64,000 nucleotides of DNA, from sequence record OQ718158.1; one strand, 5' to 3'. This DNA comes from Escherichia phage vB_Ec-M-J. Position 1 is the first letter of the stretch, and every line of letters begins with the position of its first letter. Below the pieces are notes generated by a model. The model was not told where the DNA came from. It worked only from the letters and a program-made list of their open reading frames with translations, and searched no databases. Positions 9,180 through 45,900 of this stretch are shown piece after piece. The position numbers were made by a program, and so were the translations under genes.

Positions 9180-10169
9180 ATGGCTAAAAAAATTAATGAA
9201 GCACAAGTTAAAATCGATATCGCAGGACTAGAATCTGAAGATCTAGAAACACTATCTCGTATGCTTGCACTAGCTGGTCAAGCCGAGCGTCAAGCTTCTC
9301 CTGTTGCTGCTCCAGTTCCTTCTATGGGGTCAATGACCCCTTCTCTACCACCAATCGCTCCACTCGATATGGATTCAATTGGTGCTGGTGCAGAAGAAGA
9401 AGTTGGTGGTTCAATGGATGGTGCAATTGATGCACCTGTTGAAGACCCATTAGAAGTTGCTGCTGACTCACTATCTGCTGAAGCTGGTGATTTTGGTGGT
9501 GATTCTGAAGAAGTAAGTATGGATGCAGAGTTCGAAGAGCCTGGTGTTGCAGATGAAGAAGAGTTTTCTTTAGATCTTTCCGGTCAACCTCAACTAGAAT
9601 CAGTTGAAGAAGAGGAAGAAGAAGAAATCATCGAAGAAGAATTCGATTTCAGTCGTATGCTATCTCTAGCTGGTCTTCAAGACGAACCAGAAGATGAATA
9701 TTCAGTAGAAGGTAACCCAGATACTGAAGTTAAAGTTGAAGAAAACACTTTCCTACCAGACCTAACCATCTCTGAAGATGAAGAACAAGGTGACAGTACT
9801 GATTTTGGACCTTACAACACTGAAGCTGATGCCGTTCGTGACGGTCAAGCTAAAACTAATGGTGTAGAAGGTGACCACTTTGTTGTTATTACCAAGGGTA
9901 ACAAGTTTTACTGGAGACGTGTCGTTGATGAAGATGTTGACAACCGTCCTGAACCAGAGTACTATGACAATGACGGTAACGAGAACCGTGTTCACAAATT
10001 TGAACCTAAGTTCCCAGGTACTGCTCTAGGTGACAACCCACTCAATGTTAATGAGAGTGATGAGTCCGTGGAAGGTAACGAAGAACTAGAAGATGAAAGC
10101 GATGAAGAAGTCGAAGACATTTTCGAAAGTCTCCAGAAGAAATATCAACAATTTCTAGGGGACAAATAA
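9180..10169 (+). CDS. highly acidic protein (Asp/Glu-rich; repeated SRMLxLAG motif)
   Basis: 329-aa ORF with AAAGGA Shine-Dalgarno; long E/D tracts (EEEEEEEIIEEEFDF); LSRMLALAGQ and FSRMLSLAGLQ both present. Confidence 0.7.
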   Translation: MAKKINEAQVKIDIAGLESEDLETLSRMLALAGQAERQASPVAAPVPSMGSMTPSLPPIAPLDMDSIGAGAEEEVGGSMDGAIDAPVEDPLEVAADSLSAEAGDFGGDSEEVSMDAEFEEPGVADEEEFSLDLSGQPQLESVEEEEEEEIIEEEFDFSRMLSLAGLQDEPEDEYSVEGNPDTEVKVEENTFLPDLTISEDEEQGDSTDFGPYNTEADAVRDGQAKTNGVEGDHFVVITKGNKFYWRRVVDEDVDNRPEPEYYDNDGNENRVHKFEPKFPGTALGDNPLNVNESDESVEGNEELEDESDEEVEDIFESLQKKYQQFLGDK

Positions 10170-19465: not shown

Positions 19466-19530
19466 ATAACTACCTCACTTGTTAAGATGGTGTCACCATA
19501 ATTGATGACACCGTTTTTTTATTATAATTA

Positions 19531-22500
19531 TTAAGCAGTACGTTGTGCAATGAACAAATCAGTAACTGGACTTACACCATCATAAATTACTTGGTAAATG
19601 GTCACGCTACCAGCAGTTTTGTTTAGTTCACCATCAACAACAGCATAAGTACCATCAGTTGTAAAGTTTCTGTTACCAGTTGCATCTTGTTTAACATAGA
19701 TGTATACTGATGCAGCTTTACCGCCACCAATTAGGCCAGTAATTGGAGCCAACGTGGTATCTTGGTCTAGAGTGATGAAGTATACGTTACTTGTACCATC
19801 TGGAGTCCATGTTCCGGTTGGAGCAATTACTGATGATGTAACTTGAGTTGGGATTACATCATACTTTTTGGTAGTTACTGTTGTAGTAGTTAAGTTAGCA
19901 TTAGTAGTGGTTAGTTCACCAGTCACTGTTACTGCCTTATCAAACACAGCATTTTCTTTAAATGATGAAGTTGCATTAACGGTTAGAACGTCAGCCGCTG
20001 CGTCACCTAATGTTACGTTACCATTCACAGTTAGTGCTCCACCTACTGTTGCGTTACCAGTAATGGATGCACTTGCAAGTGTAGCCAAACCTGATGTTGT
20101 AATTGTAGAAACGGTTGTTGCAGCGAATCCAGCAGTACCAGTTGCAGTGATATTGCCACCCACTGTTATGTTACCCGCAGTGGTCACTGCACCAGTGATA
20201 TTTGCACCACTTGACATAGTTACTAAACCACCAAATGAACCAGTAGTAGTAACTTCTAAAGTATTACCTTTAAGTAATCCAGTTGCAGTGATGGAAGTAC
20301 CAGCAGTAATTGCAGTACCTGCACTTAATGTGGTTCCAGCAGCTACGTTGTTAGCTGCAGTCAAAGACTTAACAGCTACATCGGAATCTGCTTGGTTCAA
20401 TTGTGCATTTAGTACGCCAGTAACAGTGAAGTTACCGTTGTTTACAACGTTACCATTAACGATTAGGTTGTTGTTTTGTGAACCGACTTCACCAATGGTT
20501 GCAGCCTTGGATATAAGTGATGCACCAGATGTAATATCACTTGCTGCCTGTATTGTTTGTTCGGCAACAATTGCATATGGTTCAATTGTTTGACCACTAA
20601 CATCAATATCAGCATTTATACCACCGTCAACACGCAAGGAACCTGCGATGAACGTATTTGGAAAAATCTGTACTGTTTCTGGGTTTTCACCAGTTTGTGT
20701 ACCAATTACAACATTTGCTCCAGTTTTCACTGCACCAGCAGTTGTGATAGAACCGAGTGTAGTAGCACCAGTTACTGATAGTGTTCCACCTATGGTTGCA
20801 TTGTTTGTTACTATTAAGCCAGTACCTGTACCATTAAAGGTAGACGATGGTGCTGAAATTGCACCAGTAACACCAAGAGAACCACCAACAGTTGCATTAC
20901 CATCTGAATGAATGGTTGTTGCGACAGAAATACTATTTGCAACAACATCAGTACTGGAAAGATCCAAACTACCAGGAGTTAATGTACCAGCAACAGTTAC
21001 ATCATCACTGAATGTAGCTGCACCAGTTACACCTAGTGTAGTACTAAAGTTACCGGATGTTGATGTAATACCAGATGTTACAATAGATCCCGCAGTTGCA
21101 GTTCCAGTTACATCAAGTGTTCCACCTATGGTTGCATTATTAGTAACAGATAGAGCAGTTCCTGAACCATTTAGTGTTACAGATGGAGCAGATACTACAC
21201 CAGTTACACCCAAATCGCCACCAACAGTTGTGTTACCGTCGGAATGCATGGTTGTTGCTACAGAAATACTATTTGCAGTAATATCAGATGATGCTAAATT
21301 CAAACCACCAGCAGGTGTAAATGTACCATTTACGGTTACATCCCCAGTAAAGGTTGAATCTCCTGACACATCAACTGTTGTTGTCGAAACACCACCATTT
21401 AAGTTTGTTAAACCAGTGACACTTAGTGTTCCACCAACCGTTGCGTTGTTGTTAACAGTTAAGCCAACACCTGGTCCAGTTAAGGACGCAGAAGGACTTG
21501 TTATTGCCCCACCAAAAGATGCAGTTCCAACAGAACTTATAGTTGTGGAAGATGATAATGATTTAACTTCAACATCAGATGCTGATAAATCAACACCACC
21601 ACTTGCAGTAAGTAATCCATCAACTTGTAAGGTTCCACCAAGTGTTGCTGCACCAGTACTAGATAGTGTATTTGTACTTACTGATGTTGCAGACAAACTA
21701 CCAGTATTAACAGTACCTAGTGTTGTTATGCCAGTTACGTTTAATGTACCATTTAAAACAGACGCCTTTGTAACAGACAAACTATCAATTGTAGCTGGAC
21801 CAGAAACATCGATAGTTTCTGCATCTAAACTACTTAATGTTGATGCACCAATTACATTAAGTGTTGTTGCAGCTTCTACACTGTTTACCACAAGATCAGC
21901 ACCAGCAAGATTCAAACCACCTTCTGGTATAAATTCACCTTTAACAGTTAATTTCTGAACAGTACTGTCACCTGAAATATCCAACGCAGATGCTGCTACG
22001 CCACCATTAAATGTACTTTGACCAGTAACTGCTAAAGTTGTTCCAACTGTTGCACTGTTTAGTGCTGCATTACCACTTATTGATGCGGCAGGTGCGGTTA
22101 TTGTACCTTCATCCAACTGCAACCCACCAGAAACAACTTGAACACCACCAGTTGCTACTGTAACTTTACCAGCGGTATTAACAGTACCAGATGTGGATAC
22201 TGCACCGACAAGAGTTGAAGTACCATTAACTGTCAAATTACCAGAAATTTCAGGACTACCAGTAACAATACCAGTTGTTAGAACCAAATCTCCACCAACA
22301 GTTGTTGAACCAGTACTTGCTAGTGTTGAAGCTGTGATATCAGCGGAACTTAGATCAATAGATCCATCAACACTAATATCCCCACCAACATGCACGTTTC
22401 CTAATGAATCTAACGATTTAACGGTCACATCAGTTGTGCTTAAGTCAATTATACCAGCAGTTAGTGTGCCAGATACAGCCAAATCACCAGTGATTGCAGT

Positions 22501-25497
22501 GCTTTTTGCAATTTCGATAGTATCATCAGCAGTTGTAATACTACCCACAGTTAGTGTACCGTTTATCGTTGCATTATTATCAACAACCAAACCTTCACCA
22601 ATAGCATTTAACGCAATACTAGTAGCAGTTACTTGAGTAGCTGATACACTCTGTAGTGTGCTATTTCCAGTTGCTTCAATGGTTGCTGCTCTAACCGAAC
22701 CAATTGTTGCATCTGTACTAATTAGTTTTGGTAAAGTACTTGAATTTACTGAATCACTTACTGTGATTACACCAGTACTATTAATGGTTTCAGCACTTGT
22801 TAGTGATTTAACAGTTACGTCAGCAGAACTAAGGTCAACTGTTCCTGATACAACTAAATCACCACCAATATTTGCACCTTCAGTTGTGGTAATTGATTTA
22901 GCATTAATATCAGTTGTTGCTAAGTCAATTGAACCAGGAGTTAAAACACCACTAACAGTTAGGTTACCTGTAATTGTTGTATCATTACTAATTTCAACAC
23001 CACCAGCATTAAAAATAACTGGCGTTTCAACAGAAATAGATTTCACATTACCACTTGCGACGACAGATGCTAATGAAGATGCTCCTGTAATATTTAAAGC
23101 AACACTGTTTGTTGTTGTAGCAGTTATAGTTCCAATACTTGCTTCAGTACTTGATAATTTAGGTAGAACACTAGTACCATTTAGATCATTACTAACGACT
23201 GGACCAGTACTTGTTAGTGATTTAACAGTTACATCTGCCGCACTAAGGTCAACTGTTCCTGATACAACTAAATCACCACCAATATTTGCACCCTCGGATG
23301 TGGCAATTGATTTAGCAGAAACGTCAGTTGTGCTTAGGTCAATTGAACCAGGAGTTACCGAACCACTTACTGTCAAGTTTCCATCAATTAAAGTATTATT
23401 TGTAATAGATACACCTGCTGGGTTAGAAATACTATCAGCTTGAACTACAACAGCAGTAACTTTACCAGAAGAATTTAAGTTAACAACACTAGAATTACCA
23501 CTAACTGTCAAATCTGTAATGGTTGCATCACTAACAGTTGCGTTTGTTGCAGTTAAATCAGTACTTGATAATTTAGGTAGAACACTAGTACCAGTTAGAT
23601 CATTACTAACGACTGGACCAGTACTGGTTAATGATTTAACAGTTACGTCTGCTGCACTCAAATCAACCACACCATCAACAGTTAAGTTACCATTAACAGT
23701 TACACCCTCTGTTACAGTTACAGACTTAGCAGCAACGTCAGTTGTGCTTAGGTCAATTGAACTAGGAGTTAGCGTTCCTTGAATAACAACATCATTTTCA
23801 AATGTGGTATTACCGGAAATTGTTGGCGAAGTTAATGTAGTTGTTGAAATTGAATCTGCACTTACGGAATCTGCACTTATTTCACCCGTTGATGTGATTT
23901 TTGGTGAAGTAATTTCAGTTGATGCTGAAATTGTTGGTGCTGAAACTAAAGTTGTTGCAGATACTGAATTTGAGTTAATAGTATTGGTATTTAGTACATT
24001 ACTAAGAACCATCGAACTACCATTAATTTCACCAGTTACACCAAGAGTTCCACCGATTGACGCATTACCAGTGCTTTCTAAGGTCACTGCTTTCACCAAT
24101 GTTGATGCATTAATCGAATTAGGAGTTAGGTCTTGACCACTTACATCAACAGTTAGGCCAGTTACTACACCAGTAAAGTCAACATCGTTTAAAATAGTCT
24201 TACCACCAACTCTTAGTTGTGGTGTGTTTGGGTCTTGTACCGCATTACCAGTAATTGTTAGGTAATCTAGTTTGTTTAGACCATTACCTGTGATACCGTA
24301 AGTAGCCAAAGATGCGTTACCAAAAGTTGCTGTTTTTAGAACATTTAATGTCGCTGGAGAAACAACTTCAGATTGTATTTCGTTTTGTAGTATTACTGTT
24401 GGACGTAAACCAGTACCAGTATATGCAAACGAAATTCTAGCAGCCGGATCTGCTACGTTTTGTCCTAAACTTACTGCTTTAAGTGTCGCAGTACTATTAA
24501 AACCAGTAATGTTACCACCTAAAGATACAGCACCACCTAATGAAGATGTACCAGAAACATTTAATGTTAGTGCGTTCAAATCATCCAATTGGAATGTACC
24601 ACCTAATGTTCCAGCGATATTAATATCATTAAAGTTTGCAGTACCTGAACTTTCGATATTAGGAATGGTTGCAGTTCCAGTTACTTCAAAATCATGAACT
24701 TTAGTTTTTCCAGATTTTACCTCCAACAATGGTGTTGTTGGGTCTTGAACAGCATTACCTGAAACTGTCAAGTAATCTAGTTTGTTTAGACCATTACCAG
24801 TGATACCATATGTTGAAAGTGATGCGTTACCAAATGATGCAGTAGAAAGAACTGTCAATTTTGCTGGTGACATCAACTCTGATTGAATTTCGTTTTGTAA
24901 TAGTACAGTTGGTCTTTGACCAGGAACAGTATAGCCAAAGTTAAGTCTATACGCTTGACCTGCCGCATCCGGTCCAATACGAACATCACGGAAGTTTGCA
25001 GTACTGTTTATACCAGTAATGTTTGCACCCAACGTAACTGCACCTTGTAGACCAGTAGTCCCAGACACATTAAGTGTTGTAGCATTAATATCAGAAAGAT
25101 TAAAAGTACCACCAAGTGTACCAGAAATGTTTACATCTTTAAAAGTTGCTGTGCCAGTTGAAGTAATATCAGTTGATTCAACAGAATCAAATGATCCTGA
25201 ATTAGCTTCTAAGTTATCAAATTTTGCAGTTGTTCCGACAGCAGCAGTAATGTTTCCTGCAAATGTCGCAGCACCTGAAACATCAGCACCAGCGGATAAG
25301 GTTGCCTTACCAGCAACATCCAATGTACCTGTGACATTCACAGTACCAGCGGTAATTGCAGTGAATACTGCGTTAGCAAAAGACACTTCCCCATTAACCG
25401 TTAGGTCATTACTGAATACTGCATTACCTTTGACCAAAAGATCCTTACCTACCGTGGAATTACCAGATACGTCAAGATCCGTTTTAATCGAGTACAT
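19531..25497 (-). CDS. giant repetitive tail fibre protein (1988 aa)
   Basis: ATG with AGGAGGGG Shine-Dalgarno; T/G/S/V/N-rich with multiple internal tandem repeat modules; paralogous to ORFs 27418-30567 and 25647-27395. Confidence 0.8.
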   Translation of the reverse strand: MYSIKTDLDVSGNSTVGKDLLVKGNAVFSNDLTVNGEVSFANAVFTAITAGTVNVTGTLDVAGKATLSAGADVSGAATFAGNITAAVGTTAKFDNLEANSGSFDSVESTDITSTGTATFKDVNISGTLGGTFNLSDINATTLNVSGTTGLQGAVTLGANITGINSTANFRDVRIGPDAAGQAYRLNFGYTVPGQRPTVLLQNEIQSELMSPAKLTVLSTASFGNASLSTYGITGNGLNKLDYLTVSGNAVQDPTTPLLEVKSGKTKVHDFEVTGTATIPNIESSGTANFNDINIAGTLGGTFQLDDLNALTLNVSGTSSLGGAVSLGGNITGFNSTATLKAVSLGQNVADPAARISFAYTGTGLRPTVILQNEIQSEVVSPATLNVLKTATFGNASLATYGITGNGLNKLDYLTITGNAVQDPNTPQLRVGGKTILNDVDFTGVVTGLTVDVSGQDLTPNSINASTLVKAVTLESTGNASIGGTLGVTGEINGSSMVLSNVLNTNTINSNSVSATTLVSAPTISASTEITSPKITSTGEISADSVSADSISTTTLTSPTISGNTTFENDVVIQGTLTPSSIDLSTTDVAAKSVTVTEGVTVNGNLTVDGVVDLSAADVTVKSLTSTGPVVSNDLTGTSVLPKLSSTDLTATNATVSDATITDLTVSGNSSVVNLNSSGKVTAVVVQADSISNPAGVSITNNTLIDGNLTVSGSVTPGSIDLSTTDVSAKSIATSEGANIGGDLVVSGTVDLSAADVTVKSLTSTGPVVSNDLNGTSVLPKLSSTEASIGTITATTTNSVALNITGASSLASVVASGNVKSISVETPVIFNAGGVEISNDTTITGNLTVSGVLTPGSIDLATTDINAKSITTTEGANIGGDLVVSGTVDLSSADVTVKSLTSAETINSTGVITVSDSVNSSTLPKLISTDATIGSVRAATIEATGNSTLQSVSATQVTATSIALNAIGEGLVVDNNATINGTLTVGSITTADDTIEIAKSTAITGDLAVSGTLTAGIIDLSTTDVTVKSLDSLGNVHVGGDISVDGSIDLSSADITASTLASTGSTTVGGDLVLTTGIVTGSPEISGNLTVNGTSTLVGAVSTSGTVNTAGKVTVATGGVQVVSGGLQLDEGTITAPAASISGNAALNSATVGTTLAVTGQSTFNGGVAASALDISGDSTVQKLTVKGEFIPEGGLNLAGADLVVNSVEAATTLNVIGASTLSSLDAETIDVSGPATIDSLSVTKASVLNGTLNVTGITTLGTVNTGSLSATSVSTNTLSSTGAATLGGTLQVDGLLTASGGVDLSASDVEVKSLSSSTTISSVGTASFGGAITSPSASLTGPGVGLTVNNNATVGGTLSVTGLTNLNGGVSTTTVDVSGDSTFTGDVTVNGTFTPAGGLNLASSDITANSISVATTMHSDGNTTVGGDLGVTGVVSAPSVTLNGSGTALSVTNNATIGGTLDVTGTATAGSIVTSGITSTSGNFSTTLGVTGAATFSDDVTVAGTLTPGSLDLSSTDVVANSISVATTIHSDGNATVGGSLGVTGAISAPSSTFNGTGTGLIVTNNATIGGTLSVTGATTLGSITTAGAVKTGANVVIGTQTGENPETVQIFPNTFIAGSLRVDGGINADIDVSGQTIEPYAIVAEQTIQAASDITSGASLISKAATIGEVGSQNNNLIVNGNVVNNGNFTVTGVLNAQLNQADSDVAVKSLTAANNVAAGTTLSAGTAITAGTSITATGLLKGNTLEVTTTGSFGGLVTMSSGANITGAVTTAGNITVGGNITATGTAGFAATTVSTITTSGLATLASASITGNATVGGALTVNGNVTLGDAAADVLTVNATSSFKENAVFDKAVTVTGELTTTNANLTTTTVTTKKYDVIPTQVTSSVIAPTGTWTPDGTSNVYFITLDQDTTLAPITGLIGGGKAASVYIYVKQDATGNRNFTTDGTYAVVDGELNKTAGSVTIYQVIYDGVSPVTDLFIAQRTA
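22380..23790 (-). repeat. in-frame tandem repeats (~420-nt unit, about three copies) inside the giant fibre gene
   Basis: Near-identical nucleotide blocks around 22800-22940, 23220-23360 and 23630-23770, encoding ...TPSSIDLSTTDV...VDLSAADVTVKSLTS... modules. Confidence 0.7.
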
Positions 25498-25597: not shown

Positions 25598-25628
25598 AAA
25601 GAAAAAGCCAACTAAAAAAGTTGGCTTT
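25598..25628 (-). terminator. rho-independent terminator (minus strand) after ORF 25647-27395
   Basis: aaagccaac-taaaaaa-gttggcttt hairpin followed on the minus strand by a T-rich run. Confidence 0.65.
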
Positions 25629-25646
25629 AATTATTAATTTAAAATG

Positions 25647-27395
25647 TTATACACGTTGTGCAACGAAGGTATCAAACACAGTACTGAAACCATCATAGAT
25701 TACTTGGATAATACTTGTTTGACCAACTACAGCACTTACTGTACCAGAAACTACAGAGTATGCACCACCGAAGGTGAAAGTAGTATCAGCAACAGTTGGA
25801 GTTACATAGATATACACTGAACATGCTTGACCACTACCAATTAGACCCGCGATGGAATCCATTGTAACACTTTGGTCAAGAGTTAAGCGATATACGTTAG
25901 TAGTACCATCTGGTGTCCAAGTACCACCTACAGCAGCAGTAGAAGCAGTAACACTAGCAGGGATAACAGAATATTTCTTAGTTACCATGTTGTTTGTAGT
26001 GAAGTTTGCAGTGGTGGTGTTAATAGAACCAGTCACTGTTAGGTTCTTATCAAATGTTGCGTTCTCTTTAAATGTAGATGTTGCATTTACAGTTAAAGTA
26101 TCAGCAGCAGCATCACCAATCACAGTGTTACCATTTGCAGTTAATGTACCACCTACAGTTAGAGCACCAGTTACAGATGCACTTGCAAGGGTAGCTAAAC
26201 CTGATGTTGTAATGGTAGAAACGGTTGTTGCACCGAATCCAGCAGTACCAGTTGCAGAGATATTACCACCTACTGTTAGGTCACCAGCAGTGATACCAAC
26301 AGTACCAGTGATGTTTGCACCACTTGACATAGTTACTGCACCACCAAATGAACCAGTAGTGGTGACTTCTAACGAATTACCTTTTAGTAAGCCTGATGCA
26401 GTGATGGATGTTCCAGCAGTGATTGAAGTACCAGCCGCAACGTTATTAGTTGCAGTTAAAGATTTAACAGCTACATCGGAATCTGCTTGGTTCAATTGTG
26501 CATTTAGTACACCAGTAACGGTGAAGTCACCATTAGTTACTACGTTACCATTAACAGTTAGGTTGTTGTTTTGTGAACCAACATCACCAATTGTTGCAGC
26601 TTTAGAAACGATGGTTGCACCAGAAGTAATGTTACCAACAGCAGATAGTGTTGCAGCAGCTTCAATTGCATATGGTTCTAGTGTTTGACCACTTACGTCG
26701 ATTTCAGCGTTAATACCACCGATTACACGCAATTTACCAGCAATATAAGTATCTGGAATGATCTGTACAGTTTCAGGTTGTTCACCAACTGGAGTACCAA
26801 CAGTTAGGGTTGTACCAGTTTTCACTGCACCAGTAGCTGTTAGTGAAGATACAGTAGTTGCACCAGTAACACCTAGAGTTCCAGTTACACCCAAATTACC
26901 ACCAACTGATGCGTTTGCAGTAGAAGTTAAACTTCCAACAGTTGCTAGACCAGATGCAGTCACAGTAGAAGTACTAACACCACCACTTAGAGTACTTAGG
27001 CCAGTTGCATTGATAGTTGTCGCAGTAGTTAGACTATTAGCAGTAATGTCTGCACCGCTTAGGTCAAGACCACCTTGTGGGATCAATTCACCTTGGACAG
27101 TTAGTTTCTGAACAGTACTGTCACCAGAAACTGTTAGTGATGTCGCAGATACACCTGCTAGAGTAGAAGCACCAGTTACACCTAAAGTTCCAGTAATGGA
27201 AGTTCCTGCTAGAGTAGAAGCACCAGAAACGTTAATTGTGTTAGTATTGATACCACCATCAACTACCTGAATACCACCAGTACTCACTGTTACTTTCTTA
27301 CCGATATTAACAATATCAGTTAGGTTAACAGCACCAGTTACACCAAGAGTTCCACCGATTGTTGTATTACCAGAGATAGCTGGGCTACCAGTCAC
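25647..27395 (-). CDS. C-terminal part of the second tail-fibre paralog (frameshift-split)
   Basis: Track start is GTG without a Shine-Dalgarno. The frame is open upstream to a TAG at 27435-27437 and encodes QVVGTDLVLTTGVVTGSPAISG, collinear with the middle of the 1988-aa fibre. The whole 582 aa aligns with the C-terminal ~580 aa of that fibre. Confidence 0.7.
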   Translation of the reverse strand: MTGSPAISGNTTIGGTLGVTGAVNLTDIVNIGKKVTVSTGGIQVVDGGINTNTINVSGASTLAGTSITGTLGVTGASTLAGVSATSLTVSGDSTVQKLTVQGELIPQGGLDLSGADITANSLTTATTINATGLSTLSGGVSTSTVTASGLATVGSLTSTANASVGGNLGVTGTLGVTGATTVSSLTATGAVKTGTTLTVGTPVGEQPETVQIIPDTYIAGKLRVIGGINAEIDVSGQTLEPYAIEAAATLSAVGNITSGATIVSKAATIGDVGSQNNNLTVNGNVVTNGDFTVTGVLNAQLNQADSDVAVKSLTATNNVAAGTSITAGTSITASGLLKGNSLEVTTTGSFGGAVTMSSGANITGTVGITAGDLTVGGNISATGTAGFGATTVSTITTSGLATLASASVTGALTVGGTLTANGNTVIGDAAADTLTVNATSTFKENATFDKNLTVTGSINTTTANFTTNNMVTKKYSVIPASVTASTAAVGGTWTPDGTTNVYRLTLDQSVTMDSIAGLIGSGQACSVYIYVTPTVADTTFTFGGAYSVVSGTVSAVVGQTSIIQVIYDGFSTVFDTFVAQRV

Positions 27396-27417
27396 AACAC
27401 CAGTTGTTAGTACTAGA

Positions 27418-30400
27418 TCAGTACCAACAACTTGCTAGACTTGCAGCTACAAGGTTAGTTGCACTTAAGTCGAATGCACCATCTACAGTTAGGTTACCAG
27501 CAATGTGTGCGTTACCTAGTGAATCAAGAGATTTAACGGTTACATCAGTATTGCTTAGGTCGATTGAACCAGCAGTTAGTGTGCCAGATACAGCTAAATC
27601 ACCAGTGATTGCAGTATTTTTTGCAATATTAAGAGAAGCAGCAGTTGTTGTTAAAGAACCAACAGTTGCAATGCCACCAACAGATAATGCACCACCAACG
27701 TTTGCATCATTATCAACTTGAAGACCAAGGCCACCACCAGAAAATTCAGCACTATTAGCAGTTACTTGAGTAGCTGATACACTTTGTAGTACACTGTTGC
27801 CAGTTGCATTAATAGTACCTGCATTTACTGTAAAGAGTGTTGCATCAGTTGAAGTAATTTTAGGTAACGAACTAGTATTGGTTGAATCGGTAACGGTAAT
27901 AACACCAGCACTTGTAATTGTCTCTGCACTTGCAAGAGATTTCACAGACACATCAGCAGCACTTAGGTCAAAAGTACCATCAACTACTAAGTTTCCACCA
28001 ACATTAACATCAGCAGTAGTAGTTAGTGAGTTTGCAGTAATATCAACAGTTGTTAGATCAAGACCACCTTCAGGTTTGAATACACCAGTGACAGTTAGAT
28101 CTTTTGCCGCGACAACATTACTTGCTAGATTTAGTGTACCAGCACCAGCAGCTTCAGCTTGTAAAGTTGGAACTGTTACAGAAGTTGTGATTGTTGCAGT
28201 ACCAGAAGACAAACGCGAACCAGATACTACACCAGTACTAGTTAGTGTTCCTACTTTCGCTGCACCAGTAGTAGTTAGTGTGCCACCTGAAACGTCACCA
28301 GTTGCGGCAACAGAAGATGCATTAATTACACCAAATGTACTTGGGTTAGTTGCACTAACTGATTTTGTTACTACATCAGCAGCAGACAAATCAATAGCAC
28401 CAGTTACTGCAAGAGAACCACCAACAGTTACGTTACCAGTAGTTGTTAAAGAAGCAGCACTTACATCAGTAGTGCTTAAATCTATACTACTCGGAGTTAG
28501 TGTTCCAGTAATAGTTACGTTATTAGCAAAAGTAGTGTCACCAGTAATACTTGGAACAGTTAGTGAAGCCATAGAGCCAGCACCAGTTACTGCAAGAGAA
28601 CCACCAGATAGTGCACCAGCCGCAGTTACTGTATTACCAGATACAGACGCACCAGTAACATCACCAGTACTGGTTACTGAACTAGCAGTTAGGCCAGCTA
28701 AAGTAGTGTCCCCAGCAACAGATAGTGTTGTTGTAACATCAACTTTATTTGGGGCGATATCAAGACCATCAACATCAGCTTGGGCAGTTACACCAGTAGT
28801 TGTACCAGTTACTACTAAATCACGTACAGTTACAGTTTGACCAGTAACGCTAACATCACCACTGAAAGTACCTTTAGCAGCACTTACATCACCAGTGAAG
28901 GTAGCAGCAGTACCAGTTAGTGCACCAACAACATTAGCAGTTCCACCAACTTGTAGGTTAGTTCCTACTGTGGTTTGACCAACTGATTCAAGGGTTTGAC
29001 CTTTGATTGCTTCAGCAGCATCTACTGATTTAGGAGTTAGATCTTGTCCACTCACATCAACAGTTAGACCAGTTACAGTACCAGTGAATTCAACATCATT
29101 TAGTACTGATTTACCAGCAACTTGTAGTTGTGGGGTAGCTGGACTTTGTGTACCATTACCAGTAATAGATAGATAATCTAGTTTGTTTAGACCGTTACCT
29201 GTGATACCATAGGTTGCAAGAGATGCATCACCAAAGGTTGCAGTTTTTTGTACATTAAGTACTGCTGGAGATACTAGCTCAGACTGAATTTCATTTTGTA
29301 GAATTACAGTTGGACGTGCACCAGGGGCAGAATAAGCAAAACCATACTTAACGTTAGCATCGGCGGCGTTTTGTCCTAAACTTACTGCTTTAAAATTAGC
29401 AGTACTATTAGCACCGGAAATATCAGCACCTAAAGTTACACCACCAACAAGGCTAGTTAAACCGGATACAGTTAGTGTGTTTGCTTCAATATCATCAAGA
29501 CTGAAAGTACCACCGAGTGTACCAGATACGTTGATGTTATTAAAATTAGCAGTACCAGTACTTTCAATGTTAGGAATAGTTGCAGTTCCTGTTACTTCGA
29601 AATCATGAACTTTAGTTTTACCTGAAGTTACTTGTAATAGTGGAGTTGTTGGATCTTGAACAGAGTTACCAGATACTGTTAGGTAATCTAGTTTGTTTAG
29701 ACCATTACCAGTAATACCAAAAGTGGATAGTGACGAATCACCAAAAGATGCAGTTTTCAATACACTTAGGGTAGCTGGAGACATCAATTCTGATTGGATT
29801 TCGTTCTGTAGAATTACAGTTGGACGAAGACTTGGAGCAGAATAGTTAAAGCTCAAACGGTAGTTAGTGTTTGCAGCATTGGAACCAATTTTAATATCAC
29901 GGAAGTTTGCACTACTATTCACACCAGTAATGTTGGAACCTAATGTAACACCACCTTGTAGACTGGTTAAACCAGAAACAGTTAGAGTTGTTGCATTAAC
30001 ATCAGATAGACTAAATGTTCCACCTAGTGTACCGGAAATATTCACATCTTTAAAGTTTGCAGTTCCAGTTGATGTGATATCAGTAGTTGCAGTGTTTGTG
30101 AATGTTGCATCAGTTGCAGTTATTTTGTCAAATGCTGCGGTAGTGCCAGTTTCAGCAGTAATATTACCTTTAAATGAAGAAGTTCCAAGAACATCCATTG
30201 ATGCCACTTGGGTATCTTTTAGTACAGCAGTGCCAGCGGTTTGTGTTAGGTTACCTGCCATTGATACTGGGCTTTGGAATTGTGCATTAGAATTAATCGT
30301 TGCAGTATCAGAACCAACAGGCAAATTACCAATTACGGAATTACCATGAACTTCAATTCCACCATTCAATGATGCTTTACCAGCAACATCTAGTGTAGAT

Positions 30401-30567
30401 GAAATGTCTACAGTTTCTGCTTCAATTGCAGTGAATACAGCGTCAGCAAAAGTTACAGTTCCATTAACTGTTAGATTTTTATTGAATACTGCATCACCTT
30501 TCACAAGAAGATCTTTAGCAACCGTTGCACCACCAGTTATATCGAGATCTGTTTTAATCGAGTACAT
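27418..30567 (-). CDS. N-terminal part of the second tail-fibre paralog (1049 aa)
   Basis: ATG with GGAGGG Shine-Dalgarno; N-terminus MYSIKTDLD... matches the 1988-aa fibre. Ends ...SLASCWY* exactly where the homolog continues ...LASTGSTTVGG... Confidence 0.8.
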   Translation of the reverse strand: MYSIKTDLDITGGATVAKDLLVKGDAVFNKNLTVNGTVTFADAVFTAIEAETVDISSTLDVAGKASLNGGIEVHGNSVIGNLPVGSDTATINSNAQFQSPVSMAGNLTQTAGTAVLKDTQVASMDVLGTSSFKGNITAETGTTAAFDKITATDATFTNTATTDITSTGTANFKDVNISGTLGGTFSLSDVNATTLTVSGLTSLQGGVTLGSNITGVNSSANFRDIKIGSNAANTNYRLSFNYSAPSLRPTVILQNEIQSELMSPATLSVLKTASFGDSSLSTFGITGNGLNKLDYLTVSGNSVQDPTTPLLQVTSGKTKVHDFEVTGTATIPNIESTGTANFNNINVSGTLGGTFSLDDIEANTLTVSGLTSLVGGVTLGADISGANSTANFKAVSLGQNAADANVKYGFAYSAPGARPTVILQNEIQSELVSPAVLNVQKTATFGDASLATYGITGNGLNKLDYLSITGNGTQSPATPQLQVAGKSVLNDVEFTGTVTGLTVDVSGQDLTPKSVDAAEAIKGQTLESVGQTTVGTNLQVGGTANVVGALTGTAATFTGDVSAAKGTFSGDVSVTGQTVTVRDLVVTGTTTGVTAQADVDGLDIAPNKVDVTTTLSVAGDTTLAGLTASSVTSTGDVTGASVSGNTVTAAGALSGGSLAVTGAGSMASLTVPSITGDTTFANNVTITGTLTPSSIDLSTTDVSAASLTTTGNVTVGGSLAVTGAIDLSAADVVTKSVSATNPSTFGVINASSVAATGDVSGGTLTTTGAAKVGTLTSTGVVSGSRLSSGTATITTSVTVPTLQAEAAGAGTLNLASNVVAAKDLTVTGVFKPEGGLDLTTVDITANSLTTTADVNVGGNLVVDGTFDLSAADVSVKSLASAETITSAGVITVTDSTNTSSLPKITSTDATLFTVNAGTINATGNSVLQSVSATQVTANSAEFSGGGLGLQVDNDANVGGALSVGGIATVGSLTTTAASLNIAKNTAITGDLAVSGTLTAGSIDLSNTDVTVKSLDSLGNAHIAGNLTVDGAFDLSATNLVAASLASCWY

Positions 30568-31599: not shown

Positions 31600-32655
31600 T
31601 TAAGATAGGGTGATATATGTTATTGGTTGAGCAGCTTTCAATAATGCCCCTGCTGCGGTAGCAGTAACAATCGGATCGGCAATATCGATACGATACGCAT
31701 TATTAACAACATAAACTGCTCTAGTGATATATGTTTTTAAATCTTCGCCATTTTCCCCTGCTCCTGTGATTAGGATTTCGGTTCCAGCAGCTTTAGCATA
31801 TTGATTATCACCCCATGATACACCCAATGCTTCGATATAAGTTTGTCCTGCAACTGTTTGTCTAATTGTGTCATATCGACCAAAGAAAGAACCACCTACT
31901 GTAACAATAAATTTTCCACCTGATTGTTTATGGATAATTGTTCCTGCTGGGAAATATCTCCCACCAGGAAAAACATCATAAGGCACGTAATACTGTTCAA
32001 CTACAGGTATTACTACAGGTCCACGATGACCCGTTCCATCAATTGCAGTGGTTACTTTAAAGTTATTAGATGATTGGTCAATACGGTCAACATACATTCT
32101 TGAGAAACTATATTTTGATATGTTACAATCATCTTGAACAACACAATTAGTCCAGTTGGTATATGTATATTTAGAGCGAGTATATAAGCCCCCTCCTTCA
32201 CCTTCAGTTGCAAGGTGTTGTCCAATAACATCAAGTTCTTTAGTACTGATATTATTAAACTTGGAAGATGACGGCAATCCACGCCATTGAATTCTACTAC
32301 ATGTAATATTAGAAAGTTCAGTAGTATTTAGCCAATTATCAGAGCCTGAAGTATACACAATAATAGACGACTCAGGAATGTGGAGATTACATAATTTAAA
32401 GTTTCGTGGAGGACCAGCAAATTTACCAGATGTTACGCCCCAGTTAATAGAAACCATACGGTTAGTTACTGATGGATCATTTAATAGATGCCCAGATAGG
32501 CCATCAATAATAAAATCAACAGAACCATAAGTAATTACACCAGCGGTTGTCAAACCAGTACCAATTGATACCAACGTTGATGGATAAACTTCATTATTGA
32601 GAATTTTAAAGTCTTTACCCAACTCAACGTGAATACATTGACGGACATTGTACAA
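31600..32655 (-). CDS. probable C-terminal continuation of the tailspike/depolymerase (frameshift-split at an A8 run)
   Basis: Track start is TTG without a Shine-Dalgarno; frame open upstream into the A8 run (plus-strand T8 at 32677-32684); beta-rich composition. Confidence 0.6.
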   Translation of the reverse strand: MYNVRQCIHVELGKDFKILNNEVYPSTLVSIGTGLTTAGVITYGSVDFIIDGLSGHLLNDPSVTNRMVSINWGVTSGKFAGPPRNFKLCNLHIPESSIIVYTSGSDNWLNTTELSNITCSRIQWRGLPSSSKFNNISTKELDVIGQHLATEGEGGGLYTRSKYTYTNWTNCVVQDDCNISKYSFSRMYVDRIDQSSNNFKVTTAIDGTGHRGPVVIPVVEQYYVPYDVFPGGRYFPAGTIIHKQSGGKFIVTVGGSFFGRYDTIRQTVAGQTYIEALGVSWGDNQYAKAAGTEILITGAGENGEDLKTYITRAVYVVNNAYRIDIADPIVTATAAGALLKAAQPITYITLS

Positions 32656-32659
32656 GCGG

Positions 32660-33742
32660 TTATTTTTTATAACGAATTTTTTTTACATATTGTGAATCAT
32701 CAGCATTCACATCATAAGGACCAGAACCTGCAACACCGATACCAATACCCCAGTTTGAAAGAGGAATTGGTGCATTTGTACCATCTACGTTTTCAATCAA
32801 GTTACCTTCTATTACAAATCCGTCTGGGTAATGTGAGTTGACTACGTTCAATTCAATTGCATCACCATATATATCATGGATGTGGTTGTATGAATAACGC
32901 CCAACGGTCATTTTCTCACCAGTGCCTTGCTGAAGAACACCGTACTTACATTGTGTCATTTCATTAAAGCAGAAGTCGATAGTACCTGATTCAGTCATAC
33001 CTTGCATTAGAAATGCAGCAGTACTTGTAATATTAATAAATTTATTAAAATAAAATTTACCATTACCACCAAAGAATTTTAAATAACATCCTGTTAATGT
33101 TGCTTGTTGGATTGTACTATTCAGTACCGATACCATTGTGCCACCGTTACCAGTGATTGTACCACCAAACCATTGAATATCATTCAAATAAACAGCAGTT
33201 CTGATACGATAATTACCACCAGCTTGAATTTGGATTTTGTGTTCTTTAGCATAAACTGCACATGCGTTAACCGCCGCCGTGTCATCAGTGATGCCATCAC
33301 CTTTTGCACCAAACTCTTCTGGAGTTATGTAAAACTGTGCCTGTTGAAGTGTTCCTCCAGTAATAAGTCCGATATAATCAGCACCGTTAACACTGGAAAG
33401 GACATTTTTATTAATGTATAATGATTTTACCCAAACATCATTTGTTTTTGCAAAGATATCAACAATACCCTCAGAATCAACTTGAAAATAAGTGTTGTTA
33501 TTTTTACCAATGTCATTTGTTGGTGGAAGTACGCCAAATAAAGCATTTGGGTTATCTTCAAGATACCTAACGTTTACTGCGGAATCATCGTCATTAGGAG
33601 TTCCCACCTTAACAGGTAGGAACGTTTCGCCTAAAAAGTCTTTGATTGCGACAGAATCGTTTACAAAATTAATAGAAGCACCACGTTTACCCAACTTGAA
33701 TGTTGGCATCATGGTCCCTTCTAAATTGGAAAAAACTGCCAT
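32660..33742 (-). CDS. tailspike N-terminal part: shared anchor plus pectate-lyase-superfamily depolymerase motif
   Basis: ATG with AGAGGG Shine-Dalgarno; N-terminus MAVFSNLEGTMMPTF... shared with ORF 30686-31585; EEFGAKGDGITDDTAAVNA is the signature start of right-handed beta-helix pectate-lyase-type depolymerases; ends in the A-run ...YVKKIRYKK*. Confidence 0.75.
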   Translation of the reverse strand: MAVFSNLEGTMMPTFKLGKRGASINFVNDSVAIKDFLGETFLPVKVGTPNDDDSAVNVRYLEDNPNALFGVLPPTNDIGKNNNTYFQVDSEGIVDIFAKTNDVWVKSLYINKNVLSSVNGADYIGLITGGTLQQAQFYITPEEFGAKGDGITDDTAAVNACAVYAKEHKIQIQAGGNYRIRTAVYLNDIQWFGGTITGNGGTMVSVLNSTIQQATLTGCYLKFFGGNGKFYFNKFINITSTAAFLMQGMTESGTIDFCFNEMTQCKYGVLQQGTGEKMTVGRYSYNHIHDIYGDAIELNVVNSHYPDGFVIEGNLIENVDGTNAPIPLSNWGIGIGVAGSGPYDVNADDSQYVKKIRYKK

Positions 33743-42998: not shown

Positions 42999-45900
42999 TT
43001 ATTTAACTTCTAATAGATTTTTAATGTCAGTACCACTTATTTGCAAACTATCGGAGTAAACAGATAGTTCGATTGGATAACTGTTAACACTATAACGTTT
43101 TAGTAAATTAACTTTACCTAAGTTCAAGCCATTAAATGAATATGTCACATTCTCTTTAAAGTCGTGTTCTGCACTATACATTACCCCACAGAGTAAGTTA
43201 TTTGCAAAACGTACTTCAACTTTTTCAAAACCAAGAGAAATAATATCATTCATACTTGCACCAGCACCAGATAGAACATTATTAGTAACACTATATGGAC
43301 TAACTGAATCTGGTTGTGAAACATAAGTAGTATTTTCTTCACTGATAGCAGTAATGTTAGTTACTGTTCCACCAACTACACCAATATATGTATCACTAAC
43401 TAGTGGATATGCATATTCCCATACCCCTTCAGCATTCAGTACTGGTTGAATAATACCAACATCATACTCGAACACGTTAATTTCCACACTATCAGTCATT
43501 TTGGTTCTCACTAACTCACTAAGAACACCTGCACCAGTAATTGGTAAGTTATATCCGTTATCAATGGTAACACCATCAACTTCAAATATCTCGTTAGACA
43601 CTACCCAAACATCAACGTCATCTGGTGTAATTCCATCATTATAAGAACCACCATATAGTGTTGTGTCGTAGAATACTTCATAGTTCATTGCGTCGATAGC
43701 ATAGTTTCTATTTGTTTCATACAACTTAACACCATCAACCAAGAATTCTGGATCAGAAAAGGTTCTAATACGAACGATGTTCAATGCTAGAGGTATTGCT
43801 GGTTCATTCTGTTGTTGTTTAGTGATGTTATCATAACGAAGTACAACTCCAGTACTATCTAGTAGTTCTACAGTTCCGTTCGCAGTGTTTCTTACTGTGT
43901 ACAAGGTTGGTGTGGTGTCAGTTTTGATTTTTGATACACTCAAGATGGTTTCCCATGCATTGTTTTGGTATCTCACGTAATCTTCACCATCAGTTGTGAA
44001 TATCATAACCTTATCACCATCAGATAGGGTATTGTCAATTACTTCAGCTTCTGTATCACTAACAATTGATTTTATTTTATAGAAGTATTTTTCATCATAC
44101 TTACTGTATGATTTACTAATATCATTTTCAATCTTAGCGTAAGAAGGAATACTAACAATTGCTTCTGTTGTTTTATAAGGGTTGATGATAACCATACCTT
44201 CAGTTTTATATCTACTATTGTCTCTCAATTGAACTAGTGAAACACTATTGAATCCATAACCATCAACTGTGAAGCGAATCTGACCAATCTTTCTTCCTGA
44301 TGGGTTAATATCAGAAATGTCGATTATGTACGGATCTACTTCGTCACCTTCAACTTCCCATTTTAACTCGGAAGTTTGTGATTCAAGTGCTAGGTTATCA
44401 AATGCATTCATATCATCGTAGTACTTAGCATCGGTGATGCTATCTAGGATGTGCTGATAATCACTGTACATTGGGTTATTTCTATCAAGAGGTAAGTCAT
44501 CAAGATTTATTTCTGCCAATTGAACTAGTTGACCGTCAGTTATGAATTTGTCTTCCATGAAATCATCAATGCTTTGGTCATCTGGGATACTCTCGTATAC
44601 ACCATTAACATTAACATAAACATATTTTCGTGGCATCATAGTAAATGCATGAATATCAATAGGCATTCTACTTAATATTTCTTCAGCCTTTTCATAATGG
44701 TCGGTAGCATCTTTGTCATACAAACCACGCATACCAGACAATACATGAATTGCGTCATTGTAGAATCGTTGATTTCCATCTTCATCTACATGGCGATATG
44801 AATAAACACCATATTCAACTTCAAGTATAATTCTAACTTCATCATCAGTTGCAGTAGTATTGTTTTCTTTAATTAAAGAAACATACTTTTTATACAACTC
44901 ACTACTAACTTCAAAGTAACCAAAGTTATAATCAGTACTGGATGCATAACCAAACGGTAGTCTGGTACTTGGATTATCATCATAGGTTAACCCACTAAAT
45001 CCACATCCAACCTCATCATGAATTACTTCATCATCTGCACCTGTGTACAATTTCAAACGGTTAGAGAGTGTGTTATACTGAACATAATGATTTACGTCAT
45101 TAAACATTTCATTTTGTGTTGATTCTTTATATACACGATTCAACGTTTCTGTGAATTCTGCGGTTGCTACCAAATCATCTGCATGGTCTGCATACCATTG
45201 GTTAACACCGTAAGCAATCCCTAGAGTTACGTTCAATTCTGGGTAATACAATTGCATCTGATAAGCAACCAATAGGTCGAAATCTTCATCACTGTATTCT
45301 GGGAATGTATATTTGTAACGTTGTAATTCAAAATTACTAACAACATCTTGTGCATTAGATTGATATTTCTTATTCACTTCTTCCAATACATCAACACTTG
45401 CCAAATTATCATTTGGTTTACATTGAGTGTTGTCGTAGTGCATGATAACATCAATTTCTTGGAAACGGCGATTAGGTGTTACGAAATCACTTGGCAATTC
45501 ACCAACTTGCTCCCAACGTTGAGTTACCTCATTGAATTGAGCATATTCATAATCCCAAATGTCTTTTTCCGTTTTAACCCAAGTCCCATCTGCAAATATA
45601 TAGCCATTAGGATCTAAATCATTACACAAACCTTTAATTAAATCATCATCTGAAGTTTTCTGTTCAATCTGGGAACGAATCTTAGTTCTATATGGTTTAA
45701 CTTCTTCAAAGTACTCAACGATTTGATTAATCAAGTTGTCGTTGGAATAGTTCTGTACTAATGATTGTTCTAAACCTACAATATAAATGTAAGATGTTTT
45801 GAATACCCAATCAACAACGCTTTGTTCTACGTGAACATACTTAACCATATCAAACACAATTTCACTCTGATGTAAGTCGAATGAGTTCTTCAATAAAGCT

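Follow-up and report, generated by a model that had tools for sequence, protein, structure and literature searches.

A probable recent, strain-specific 14-nt deletion interrupts a giant tail fibre gene in the genome sequence of Escherichia phage vB_Ec-M-J

A giant tail fibre gene of Escherichia phage vB_Ec-M-J, a jumbo coliphage of the genus Asteriusvirus, is split into two ORFs in a 64,000-nt stretch of its genome sequence (OQ718158.1; hereafter the window). This gene (fibre 1), the orthologue of Ecwhy1_207, has probably undergone a recent 14-nt deletion in this lineage only and is most readily regarded as a fresh pseudogene or the source of a truncated stub, not as a recoding site. The break is an ordinary, strain-specific one, a sequence error being less likely, and it provides no new mechanism. 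By sequence comparison, the window is ~99% identical to Ecwhy_1 across most of its length, and the gene order (tailspike, 299-aa structural protein, fibre 1, fibre 2, and a 259-aa protein) is conserved with relatives; the position of fibre 1 between the genes for the 299-aa structural protein and fibre 2 is common to its orthologues. The features discussed below are listed in Table 1.

Table 1. Positions in the window of the fibre and tailspike features of vB_Ec-M-J
Feature	Position	Strand	Remarks
Fibre 1, 5' fragment, 1049 aa	27418..30567	-	Premature TGA at 27420-27418; orthologous to Ecwhy1_207 codons 1-1046
Fibre 1, 3' fragment, +1 frame	25647..27434	-	Open from CAA 27434; first possible start GTG 27395
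Deletion junction	27429..27430	-	14 nt ACTGGTTCTACTAC missing here, present in all relatives
Lineage-specific base change	27423	-	Coding-strand T, against A in relatives
Hairpin from both changes	27402..27432	-	Arms 27432-27420 and 27414-27402, loop 27419-27415
Fibre 2, intact paralog, 1988 aa	19531..25497	-	Downstream of fibre 1
Colanidase-like tailspike, broken	31600..33742	-	Extra A in the run 32677-32684

The 1049-aa upstream ORF, ending in ...SLASCWY, was present as an earlier note on this DNA had described it, and its product exactly matches GenBank WGM49547.1 ('tail fiber protein', Escherichia phage vB_Ec-M-J); it comprises 1046 native residues followed by Cys-Trp-Tyr. The downstream ORF (25647-27395, minus strand; 582 aa) was likewise found with its GTG start, and reading of the sequence upstream of this GTG revealed no AGGAG-like Shine-Dalgarno (SD) element, as had been claimed. 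Its frame, which is +1 relative to that of the upstream ORF, is indeed open as far back as CAA 27434-27432, which directly follows TAG 27437-27435. This stretch reads QVVGTDLVLTTG; the junction contains no homopolymer, again as noted earlier. Each piece aligns collinearly with the 1988-aa paralog (fibre 2), as had been proposed, the N-terminal piece sharing 49% identity from residue 1 and the C-terminal piece 59% identity across the last 587 aa, and VGTDLVLTTGVVTGSP aligns with residues 1067 onward of the paralog. The 5' and 3' ORFs match phrog_4549 (tail fiber) with E-values of 4.7e-130 and 1.4e-54, respectively, and both halves thus show similarity to the Asteriusvirus giant tail fibre family. 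The 3' fragment codes for the distal part of the shaft and for the tip domain at the C-terminus; over its final ~170 aa it is similar to the C-terminal end of the phiTE tail fibre 9cuy_g (E = 4.6e-10). A homologous-protein search with the 582-aa piece, in which the word index was swamped, returned one irrelevant low-complexity match, an AlphaFold model of the last 197 aa built without an alignment was unusable (pLDDT 41), and a promoter and terminator scan at the junction detected nothing above background.

That the two ORFs are halves of one fibre gene separated by a frameshift is borne out by five close relatives, in which a single intact CDS is annotated. Its length is 4935 nt in Ecwhy_1 (Ecwhy1_207, QAY00486.1), EC.P1 (XOD30142.1), WPEC5 (XUI95520.1), and fEgEco12 (g317, XBS49399.1) and 4917 nt in WPEC3 (XTQ13599.1). 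Fibre 1 differs from these orthologues at 13 (Ecwhy_1) to 97 (WPEC3) of 4935 aligned positions (98-99.7% identity; nucleotide identity to Ecwhy_1 is 99.5%). The earlier note had placed a single-nucleotide indel near 27425-27437, but alignment of the junction with four close relatives defined a lesion of another size, namely the deletion of 14 nt (ACTGGTTCTACTAC) between 27430 and 27429, accompanied by a base change at 27423. The base change lies 6 nt from the deletion and is silent in the ancestral frame, where it replaces the Gly codon GGA with GGT, and the net change of -14 nt is equivalent to +1 in frame. Comparison with related phage genomes, which had been suggested as a check, showed that the 14 nt are kept in all nine of the close relatives compared, and distant Serratia and Erwinia phages also span the junction with about 14 extra nt. 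Re-insertion of the 14 nt restored a clean ORF of 1644 aa, in agreement with the ~1640 aa estimated for the whole fibre. The restored ORF contains no further stops and only five lineage-specific substitutions, four of which are synonymous, indicating that the break is recent. After restoration, the vB_Ec-M-J copy is equal in length to its orthologues; these are unbroken, whereas the vB_Ec-M-J copy is frameshifted, lacks a single uninterrupted frame of ~1640 aa, and has its first 1046 native residues alone in frame with the start codon. Judged from sequence, it is a disrupted member of the Asteriusvirus giant tail fibre family. A 35-mer across the deletion junction was absent from viral, metagenome, and genome contig collections, and no copy of the junction region was found in complete E. 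coli genomes.

Several simple origins of the deletion were considered and rejected. Simple microhomology-mediated deletion would require a direct repeat at the breakpoints, which is absent, and a nearby ACTG...ACTG repeat would take out 12 nt, not 14. Gene conversion by, or collapse with, the paralog does not account for the loss, as the paralog still has 14 nt of its own (ACTGGTTCAACAAC). A hotspot for deletions common to vB_Ec-M-J and WPEC3 was also discarded, since the deletion in that phage is an in-frame one of 18 nt located ~1.1 kb away. The GGT at the base-change position carries the same base as the paralog, although one base is uninformative.

The deletion most likely arose by template switching during replication at a quasi-palindrome. 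The ancestral sequence contains a pre-existing imperfect inverted repeat, the arms of which (TGTTGGAACT and AGTACTAACA) form 8 of 10 pairs, including one G-T. Both changes unique to vB_Ec-M-J turn this weak quasi-palindrome into a hairpin of 13 pairs (one G-T) whose loop and uppermost stem hold the premature stop codon; through the base change at 27423, an A-A mismatch of the quasi-palindrome becomes a pair. The DNA fold energy, computed on 60 nt around the junction, was -5.1 kcal/mol for the ancestral sequence, -9.4 kcal/mol with the deletion only, and -12.3 kcal/mol with the deletion and the base change. The deletion-only value was reached by 0.6% of all 14-nt deletions in the gene and the observed value by 1 of 14,583 random variants carrying a deletion plus a nearby base change; the gain in complementarity is above chance, as expected of a quasipalindrome template switch. 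Mutations of this kind are an established class (PMC7202029). As in the Ripley-model mutations known from work in E. coli (PMC7202029), an imperfect inverted repeat existed beforehand, a deletion and a nearby substitution together raise the complementarity of the arms, the deletion ends where the ancestral stem ends, and re-annealing takes place at the closest 3-nt match upstream. The nascent strand may have folded onto the arm AGTACTAACAACT, gained 3 nt (ACT) by copying it, and then paired again with the nearest AGT upstream, and the deletion fits such a 3-nt templated extension with re-annealing. However, the base change and the deletion junction are still separated by a G-T mismatch (27425/27409), and therefore one contiguous templated patch cannot explain both changes; unlike in a Ripley-type single patch, one mismatch within the stem has been left uncorrected. 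The template-switch model is post hoc, and the two changes do not satisfy it in full; the base change may be a polymorphism of independent origin. Because the deletion shifts the frame, translation from the normal ATG would end after 1049 aa, and the last ~590 codons, corresponding to the distal shaft and the C-terminal tip, would be out of frame and lack their own ribosome-binding site.

Three readings of the junction had been offered in the earlier note, namely pseudogenisation, an assembly error, and a programmed +1 frameshift. The last is not supported (see below), and between the other two the evidence leans towards a real mutation, because the loss of 14 nt in non-repetitive, non-homopolymeric sequence is an atypical error and because the deletion and the base change perfect a quasi-palindrome, which is a signature of template switching. 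It is possible, if rather unlikely, that the phage carries an intact 1644-aa gene and that the gap was introduced during assembly or polishing, with the extra A of the tailspike gene described below being likewise erroneous. In favour of an error, the lesion is unique to one database record, the remainder of the fibre 1 gene is conserved, and the surroundings consist of tandem paralogous fibre genes with internal repeats. Homopolymers whose length is specific to this lineage occur in the record at 32685, 19521, 18680, and 37254, and four such differences in 64 kb could reflect a platform prone to homopolymer errors. With one event in the tailspike gene and three in intergenic regions, a comparison of coding with intergenic sequence has too few events to tell sequencing errors from genuine variants. 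Among the long homopolymers in coding sequence, however, only one differs from the relatives, and therefore the assembly is not generally poor. Moreover, neither short- nor long-read platforms typically lose 14 nt in locally unique, non-homopolymer sequence, the corresponding site of the paralog has a different sequence (ACTGGTTCAACAAC) so that paralog collapse would not give this product, and the joint perfecting of the quasi-palindrome (1/14,583) points to a polymerase event on real DNA.

A functional fibre made of two pieces, in which the 1049-aa stub is incorporated at the baseplate and reinitiation after termination, at GTG 27395, yields small amounts of a C-terminal piece that joins it non-covalently or acts alone, appears improbable. 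The downstream frame has no further damage and the GTG lies 23 nt after the stop. In the related phage phiTE, the N-terminus of the long tail fibre binds the baseplate (PMC11972413), and the stub would therefore keep its attachment end. Nevertheless, the GTG has no SD, a GGTG being located only 2 nt from it, no relative is split at the same position, the break interrupts a continuous repetitive shaft midway and not at a domain boundary with an adaptor, and a recent lesion accounts equally well for the intact 3' part. In half-fibres of the T4 gp34-gp37 type, the split is conserved and each half has its own start and ribosome-binding site; the 3' half of fibre 1 has neither an SD nor an ATG and does not belong to this type.

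A second adsorption gene is also broken in this genome. The colanidase-like tailspike, which is 713 aa long in relatives, is represented in vB_Ec-M-J by ORFs of 360 and 351 aa, both of which exactly match vB_Ec-M-J proteins (WGM49550.1 and WGM49549.1). The frameshift, due to an extra A in the run 32677-32684 (A8 in vB_Ec-M-J and A7 in relatives), is unique to this phage. It is very improbable that these losses are non-random, i.e. that vB_Ec-M-J turns its accessory receptor-binding proteins off, and possibly back on, via locally hypermutable sequences (the A7/A8 run of the tailspike gene and the quasi-palindrome of fibre 1), with the 1049-aa stub or a reinitiated C-terminal piece perhaps being functional. 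If so, the adsorption apparatus of a jumbo phage would be tuned in a manner resembling contingency loci.

Programmed +1 ribosomal frameshifting of the prfB kind, yielding a full-length fibre from the two frames, is the least credible alternative, with hardly any likelihood: the downstream frame is +1 and the short overlap of the frames (27434-27418) ends in a UGA stop, but the lesion occurs in this genome only, and neither a re-pairing codon nor an SD-like stimulator is present. Every relative encodes the protein in one frame, and the five-codon overlap (AGU UGU UGG UAC UGA) contains no slippery codon; by established decoding rules, the tRNAs of AGU, UGU, UGG, and UAC are not cognate or near-cognate for the respective +1 codons (GUU, GUU, GGU, and ACU). 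There is no SD-like element 3 nt upstream and no GGAGG-like element upstream, the stop codon is contained within the hairpin rather than preceding it, and the product would lack 4-5 residues conserved in all homologues and in the paralog. The junction thus resembles prfB-type sites only in its geometry, in which a UGA stop in frame 0 is followed by an open +1 frame, and not in the slippery codon, the SD stimulator, or the conservation. Recoding of the TGA itself was also rejected, as read-through in the upstream frame meets a TAG 11 codons later.

The closest analogue of the fibre 1 break, taken as a recent deletion, is the stf frameshift of lambda PaPa. This frameshift (orf401/orf314; Hendrix & Duda 1992) abolishes the side fibres while viability is kept (PMC12617516). 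In both cases, the gene is intact in relatives (Ur-lambda, the wild relative, in the case of lambda) and split in one lineage, a propagated one for lambda PaPa, by a frameshift that gives two adjacent ORFs. Lambda PaPa stays viable through another receptor-binding protein that remains, and such frameshifts are selected in plaques or structured media; plaque growth has been reported to select stf frameshifts (PMC2762979). The two breaks differ in that lambda PaPa lost a single base whereas fibre 1 lost 14 nt, and, unlike lambda stf, fibre 1 is one of two tandem giant paralogs in a jumbo myovirus. The intact fibre 2 (1988 aa) is a possible source of functional redundancy, and the loss of fibre 1, which the sequence predicts for the virion of vB_Ec-M-J, may have been tolerated through this divergent paralog immediately downstream. 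By analogy with stf, loss of an accessory fibre could even have been favoured during plaque propagation.

The main value of these observations lies in annotation and in phage-therapy or host-range work, in which vB_Ec-M-J should presumptively be treated as having no functional fibre 1 and probably no functional colanidase tailspike; WGM49547.1 should carry a truncated-product flag. If the lesions are real, vB_Ec-M-J would be a natural double knockout beside the nearly isogenic Ecwhy_1 and fEgEco12, and their pairing could show the contribution of each fibre to adsorption in the many-fibred Asteriusvirus phages. In phAPEC6, a single giant fibre, gp256, is found at the fibre 1 position, and gp256 has been identified as a virion protein by mass spectrometry (PMC7247149).

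The broken giant tail-fibre gene of vB_Ec-M-J (fibre 1) consists of two ORFs, both collinear with an intact paralog (fibre 2): the 1049-aa N-terminal piece aligns with the paralog from residue 1 (49% identity) and the 582-aa C-terminal piece shares 59% identity with its last 587 aa. The frame of the 3' ORF is open upstream to a CAA codon at 27434-27432, located directly after TAG (27437-27435), and reads QVVGTDLVLTTGVVTGSP; the peptide immediately past the junction matches paralog residues 1067 onward. The junction contains no homopolymer, and the GTG of the 582-aa ORF is not preceded by any AGGAG-like element. Because the ORFs, open frame, junction and paralog alignments are all as the earlier note had claimed, its descriptive part is correct. 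By exact-sequence look-up, the 1049-aa product is WGM49547.1 of Escherichia phage vB_Ec-M-J (378,573 bp), named 'tail fiber protein'; the phage's record is given as OQ718158.1 (PMC13070987).

Nine Asteriusvirus jumbo coliphages (Ecwhy_1, EC.P1, WPEC5, CMSTMSU, fEgEco12, WPEC3, Turkey3, BF17, and TH47) match the fibre region at 97.3-99.5% identity; the top match is below 100% because OQ718158.1 is absent from the phage collection searched. A single CDS of 4935 nt (1644 aa) is annotated at the fibre 1 position in Ecwhy_1, EC.P1, WPEC5, and fEgEco12, and one of 4917 nt in WPEC3, in line with the intact fibre of ~1640 aa expected in the earlier note, which had called for this comparison with related genomes. 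The single-nucleotide indel proposed there was not found: multiple alignment revealed a lineage-specific deletion of 14 nt (ACTGGTTCTACTAC), equivalent to +1 in frame, and a base change at 27423, 6 nt downstream of the deletion; in the ancestral frame, this change is silent (GGA to GGT). In each of the nine close relatives, a 141-nt junction query aligned with 155 nt, and Serratia phage BF and the Erwinia pEa_SNUABM phages likewise have ~14 extra nt at the junction. The ancestral sequence encodes ...SLAS-TGSTT-VGTDLVLTTG..., and the paralog retains the equivalent STGSTTVGG. A 35-mer over the deletion junction had no exact match in viral, metagenome, or genome contig collections, and no copy of the junction region was found in complete Escherichia coli genomes. 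Five 1-2 nt deletions set the CMSTMSU orthologue (L004; MH494197.1, 1501-6509) apart from the other four sequences, and its annotation comprises four fragments, three of which are named 'flagellar hook-length control protein FliK'; the record bears the mark UNVERIFIED_ORG, so the sequence is probably of low quality and the annotation misleading.

Features of the window and non-compensated indel sites relative to Ecwhy_1
Feature	Position	Strand	Description
Fibre 1, 5' ORF	27418-30567	(-)	1049 aa; ends ...AASLASCWY, TGA at 27420-27418
Fibre 1, 3' ORF	25647-27395	(-)	582 aa; GTG start; +1 frame
Fibre 2 ORF	19531-25497	(-)	1988 aa
Fibre 2, divergent centre	20745-24119		
Hairpin	25604-25628		perfect, 10 bp
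Tailspike gene	31600-33742	(-)	360-aa and 351-aa ORFs
Giant ORF	42999-53000	(-)	3333 aa
Indel, fibre 1	between 27430 and 27429		14-nt deletion
Indel, tailspike gene	32677-32684		extra A; A8 here, A7 in relatives; unique to window
Indel, intergenic	19514-19520		A7 here, A8 in relatives; unique to window
Indel, intergenic	~18680		T6 here, T7 in relatives; unique to window
Indel, intergenic	~37254		A6 here, A7 or A8 in relatives, which vary among themselves
Indel, TTC repeat	~9627		one TTC unit lost, in-frame, inside ORF 9180-10169 (structural protein in Ecwhy_1)

When the junction was folded, the allele of the window formed a strong hairpin. With DNA parameters, the 60 nt around the junction gave energies of -5.1 kcal/mol for the ancestral sequence, -9.4 kcal/mol for the deletion only, and -12.3 kcal/mol for the deletion plus base change. 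Junctions of 14-nt deletions gene-wide averaged -4.0 (standard deviation, 1.9); of the possible 14-nt deletions in fibre 1, only 0.6% reach the junction stability of the deletion alone, and -12.3 was reached by only one of 14,583 random variants ('deletion plus nearby substitution'). The deletion starts at the exact end of an ancestral imperfect stem (TGTTGGAACT/AGTACTAACA), and the AGT that it brings to the junction pairs with ACT of the opposite arm. Both points are as expected if the nascent strand folded back, underwent a 3-nt templated extension and re-annealed at the closest upstream AGT, which is how mutations of the quasipalindrome template-switch class arise (PMC7202029). These features support a template switch as the origin of the deletion, with an imperfect fit: the stretch from the base change to the junction still contains a G-T mismatch, and thus one contiguous patch cannot account for both changes. 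The inferred mechanism speaks for a genuine polymerase event rather than an assembly error.

Restoration of the 14 nt generates a clean 4935-nt ORF, the same length as in relatives, with only five substitutions unique to the window lineage (four synonymous) and no secondary damage in the 3' part. Either purifying selection acted on fibre 1 up to the very recent past, or the deletion is an artefact. We regard a real mutation as probable and an artefact as rather unlikely. The window is ~99% identical to Ecwhy_1 across 64 kb, apart from the central part of fibre 2. Only six non-compensated indel sites distinguish the two over this length, which speaks against a generally poor assembly; the few window-specific homopolymer changes could be due to natural slippage or to errors of the platform. 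The colanidase-like tailspike gene (phrog_6117), which encodes 713 aa in Ecwhy_1, fEgEco12, WPEC3, and most members of its two protein clusters, is split by an extra A where eight relatives have A7 (200 nt aligned to a 201-nt query). Its two ORFs correspond exactly to WGM49549.1 and WGM49550.1 of vB_Ec-M-J, each named 'colanidase tailspike'. This uniquely frameshifted second adsorption gene fits a loss like that in lambda PaPa, described below, and equally a sequence-quality problem. The last option of the earlier note, a programmed +1 frameshift producing full-length fibre 1, is highly improbable: the frameshift occurs in no homologue, no codon in the frame overlap (AGU UGU UGG UAC UGA) allows its tRNA to move to the +1 codon and pair there, no SD-like element lies upstream, the sole notable RNA structure at the junction surrounds the stop codon and is not downstream of it, and the product would miss 4-5 residues kept in all homologues.

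The nearest precedent for the fibre 1 break, as a frameshift-split accessory fibre gene, is stf of lambda PaPa, which is divided into orf401 and orf314 with loss of the side fibres and retention of viability (PMC12617516); plaque growth selects stf-type frameshifts (PMC2762979). The break is a commonplace disruption of one tail-fibre paralog, specific to this strain and involving no new mechanism; it has value for annotation and may serve as a natural knockout. The fibre 1 family is a trimeric, beta-helical long fibre, and over its C-terminal 170 aa fibre 1 resembles the C-terminal end of the tail fibre protein of phiTE (9cuy_g, E = 4.6e-10). Because the trimeric phiTE long tail fibre binds the baseplate by its N-terminus (PMC11972413), truncated fibre 1 would by analogy retain its attachment end and lack the distal shaft and the tip. 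In phAPEC6, the sole giant fibre at this position is gp256 (180 kDa), a virion protein (PMC7247149).

Fibre 2 is intact; no phage in the collection searched has an allele like it, and no record there covers at least 80% of fibre 2. Its centre differs from all relatives, whose fibre 2 CDSs are 5700-5721 nt (~1900 aa), and it looks like a mosaic or exchanged allele specific to vB_Ec-M-J. The interval from the fibre 1 stop codon to the fibre 2 start contains a hairpin with an A-rich flank on one side and a T-rich flank on the other, which scores as a terminator on both strands; the two fibre genes may be separate transcription units. The giant 3333-aa ORF is an orthologue of Ecwhy1_196 (9972 nt, hypothetical), and we take its probable counterpart to be phAPEC6 gp245, a 382-kDa virion protein just past the baseplate wedge protein.
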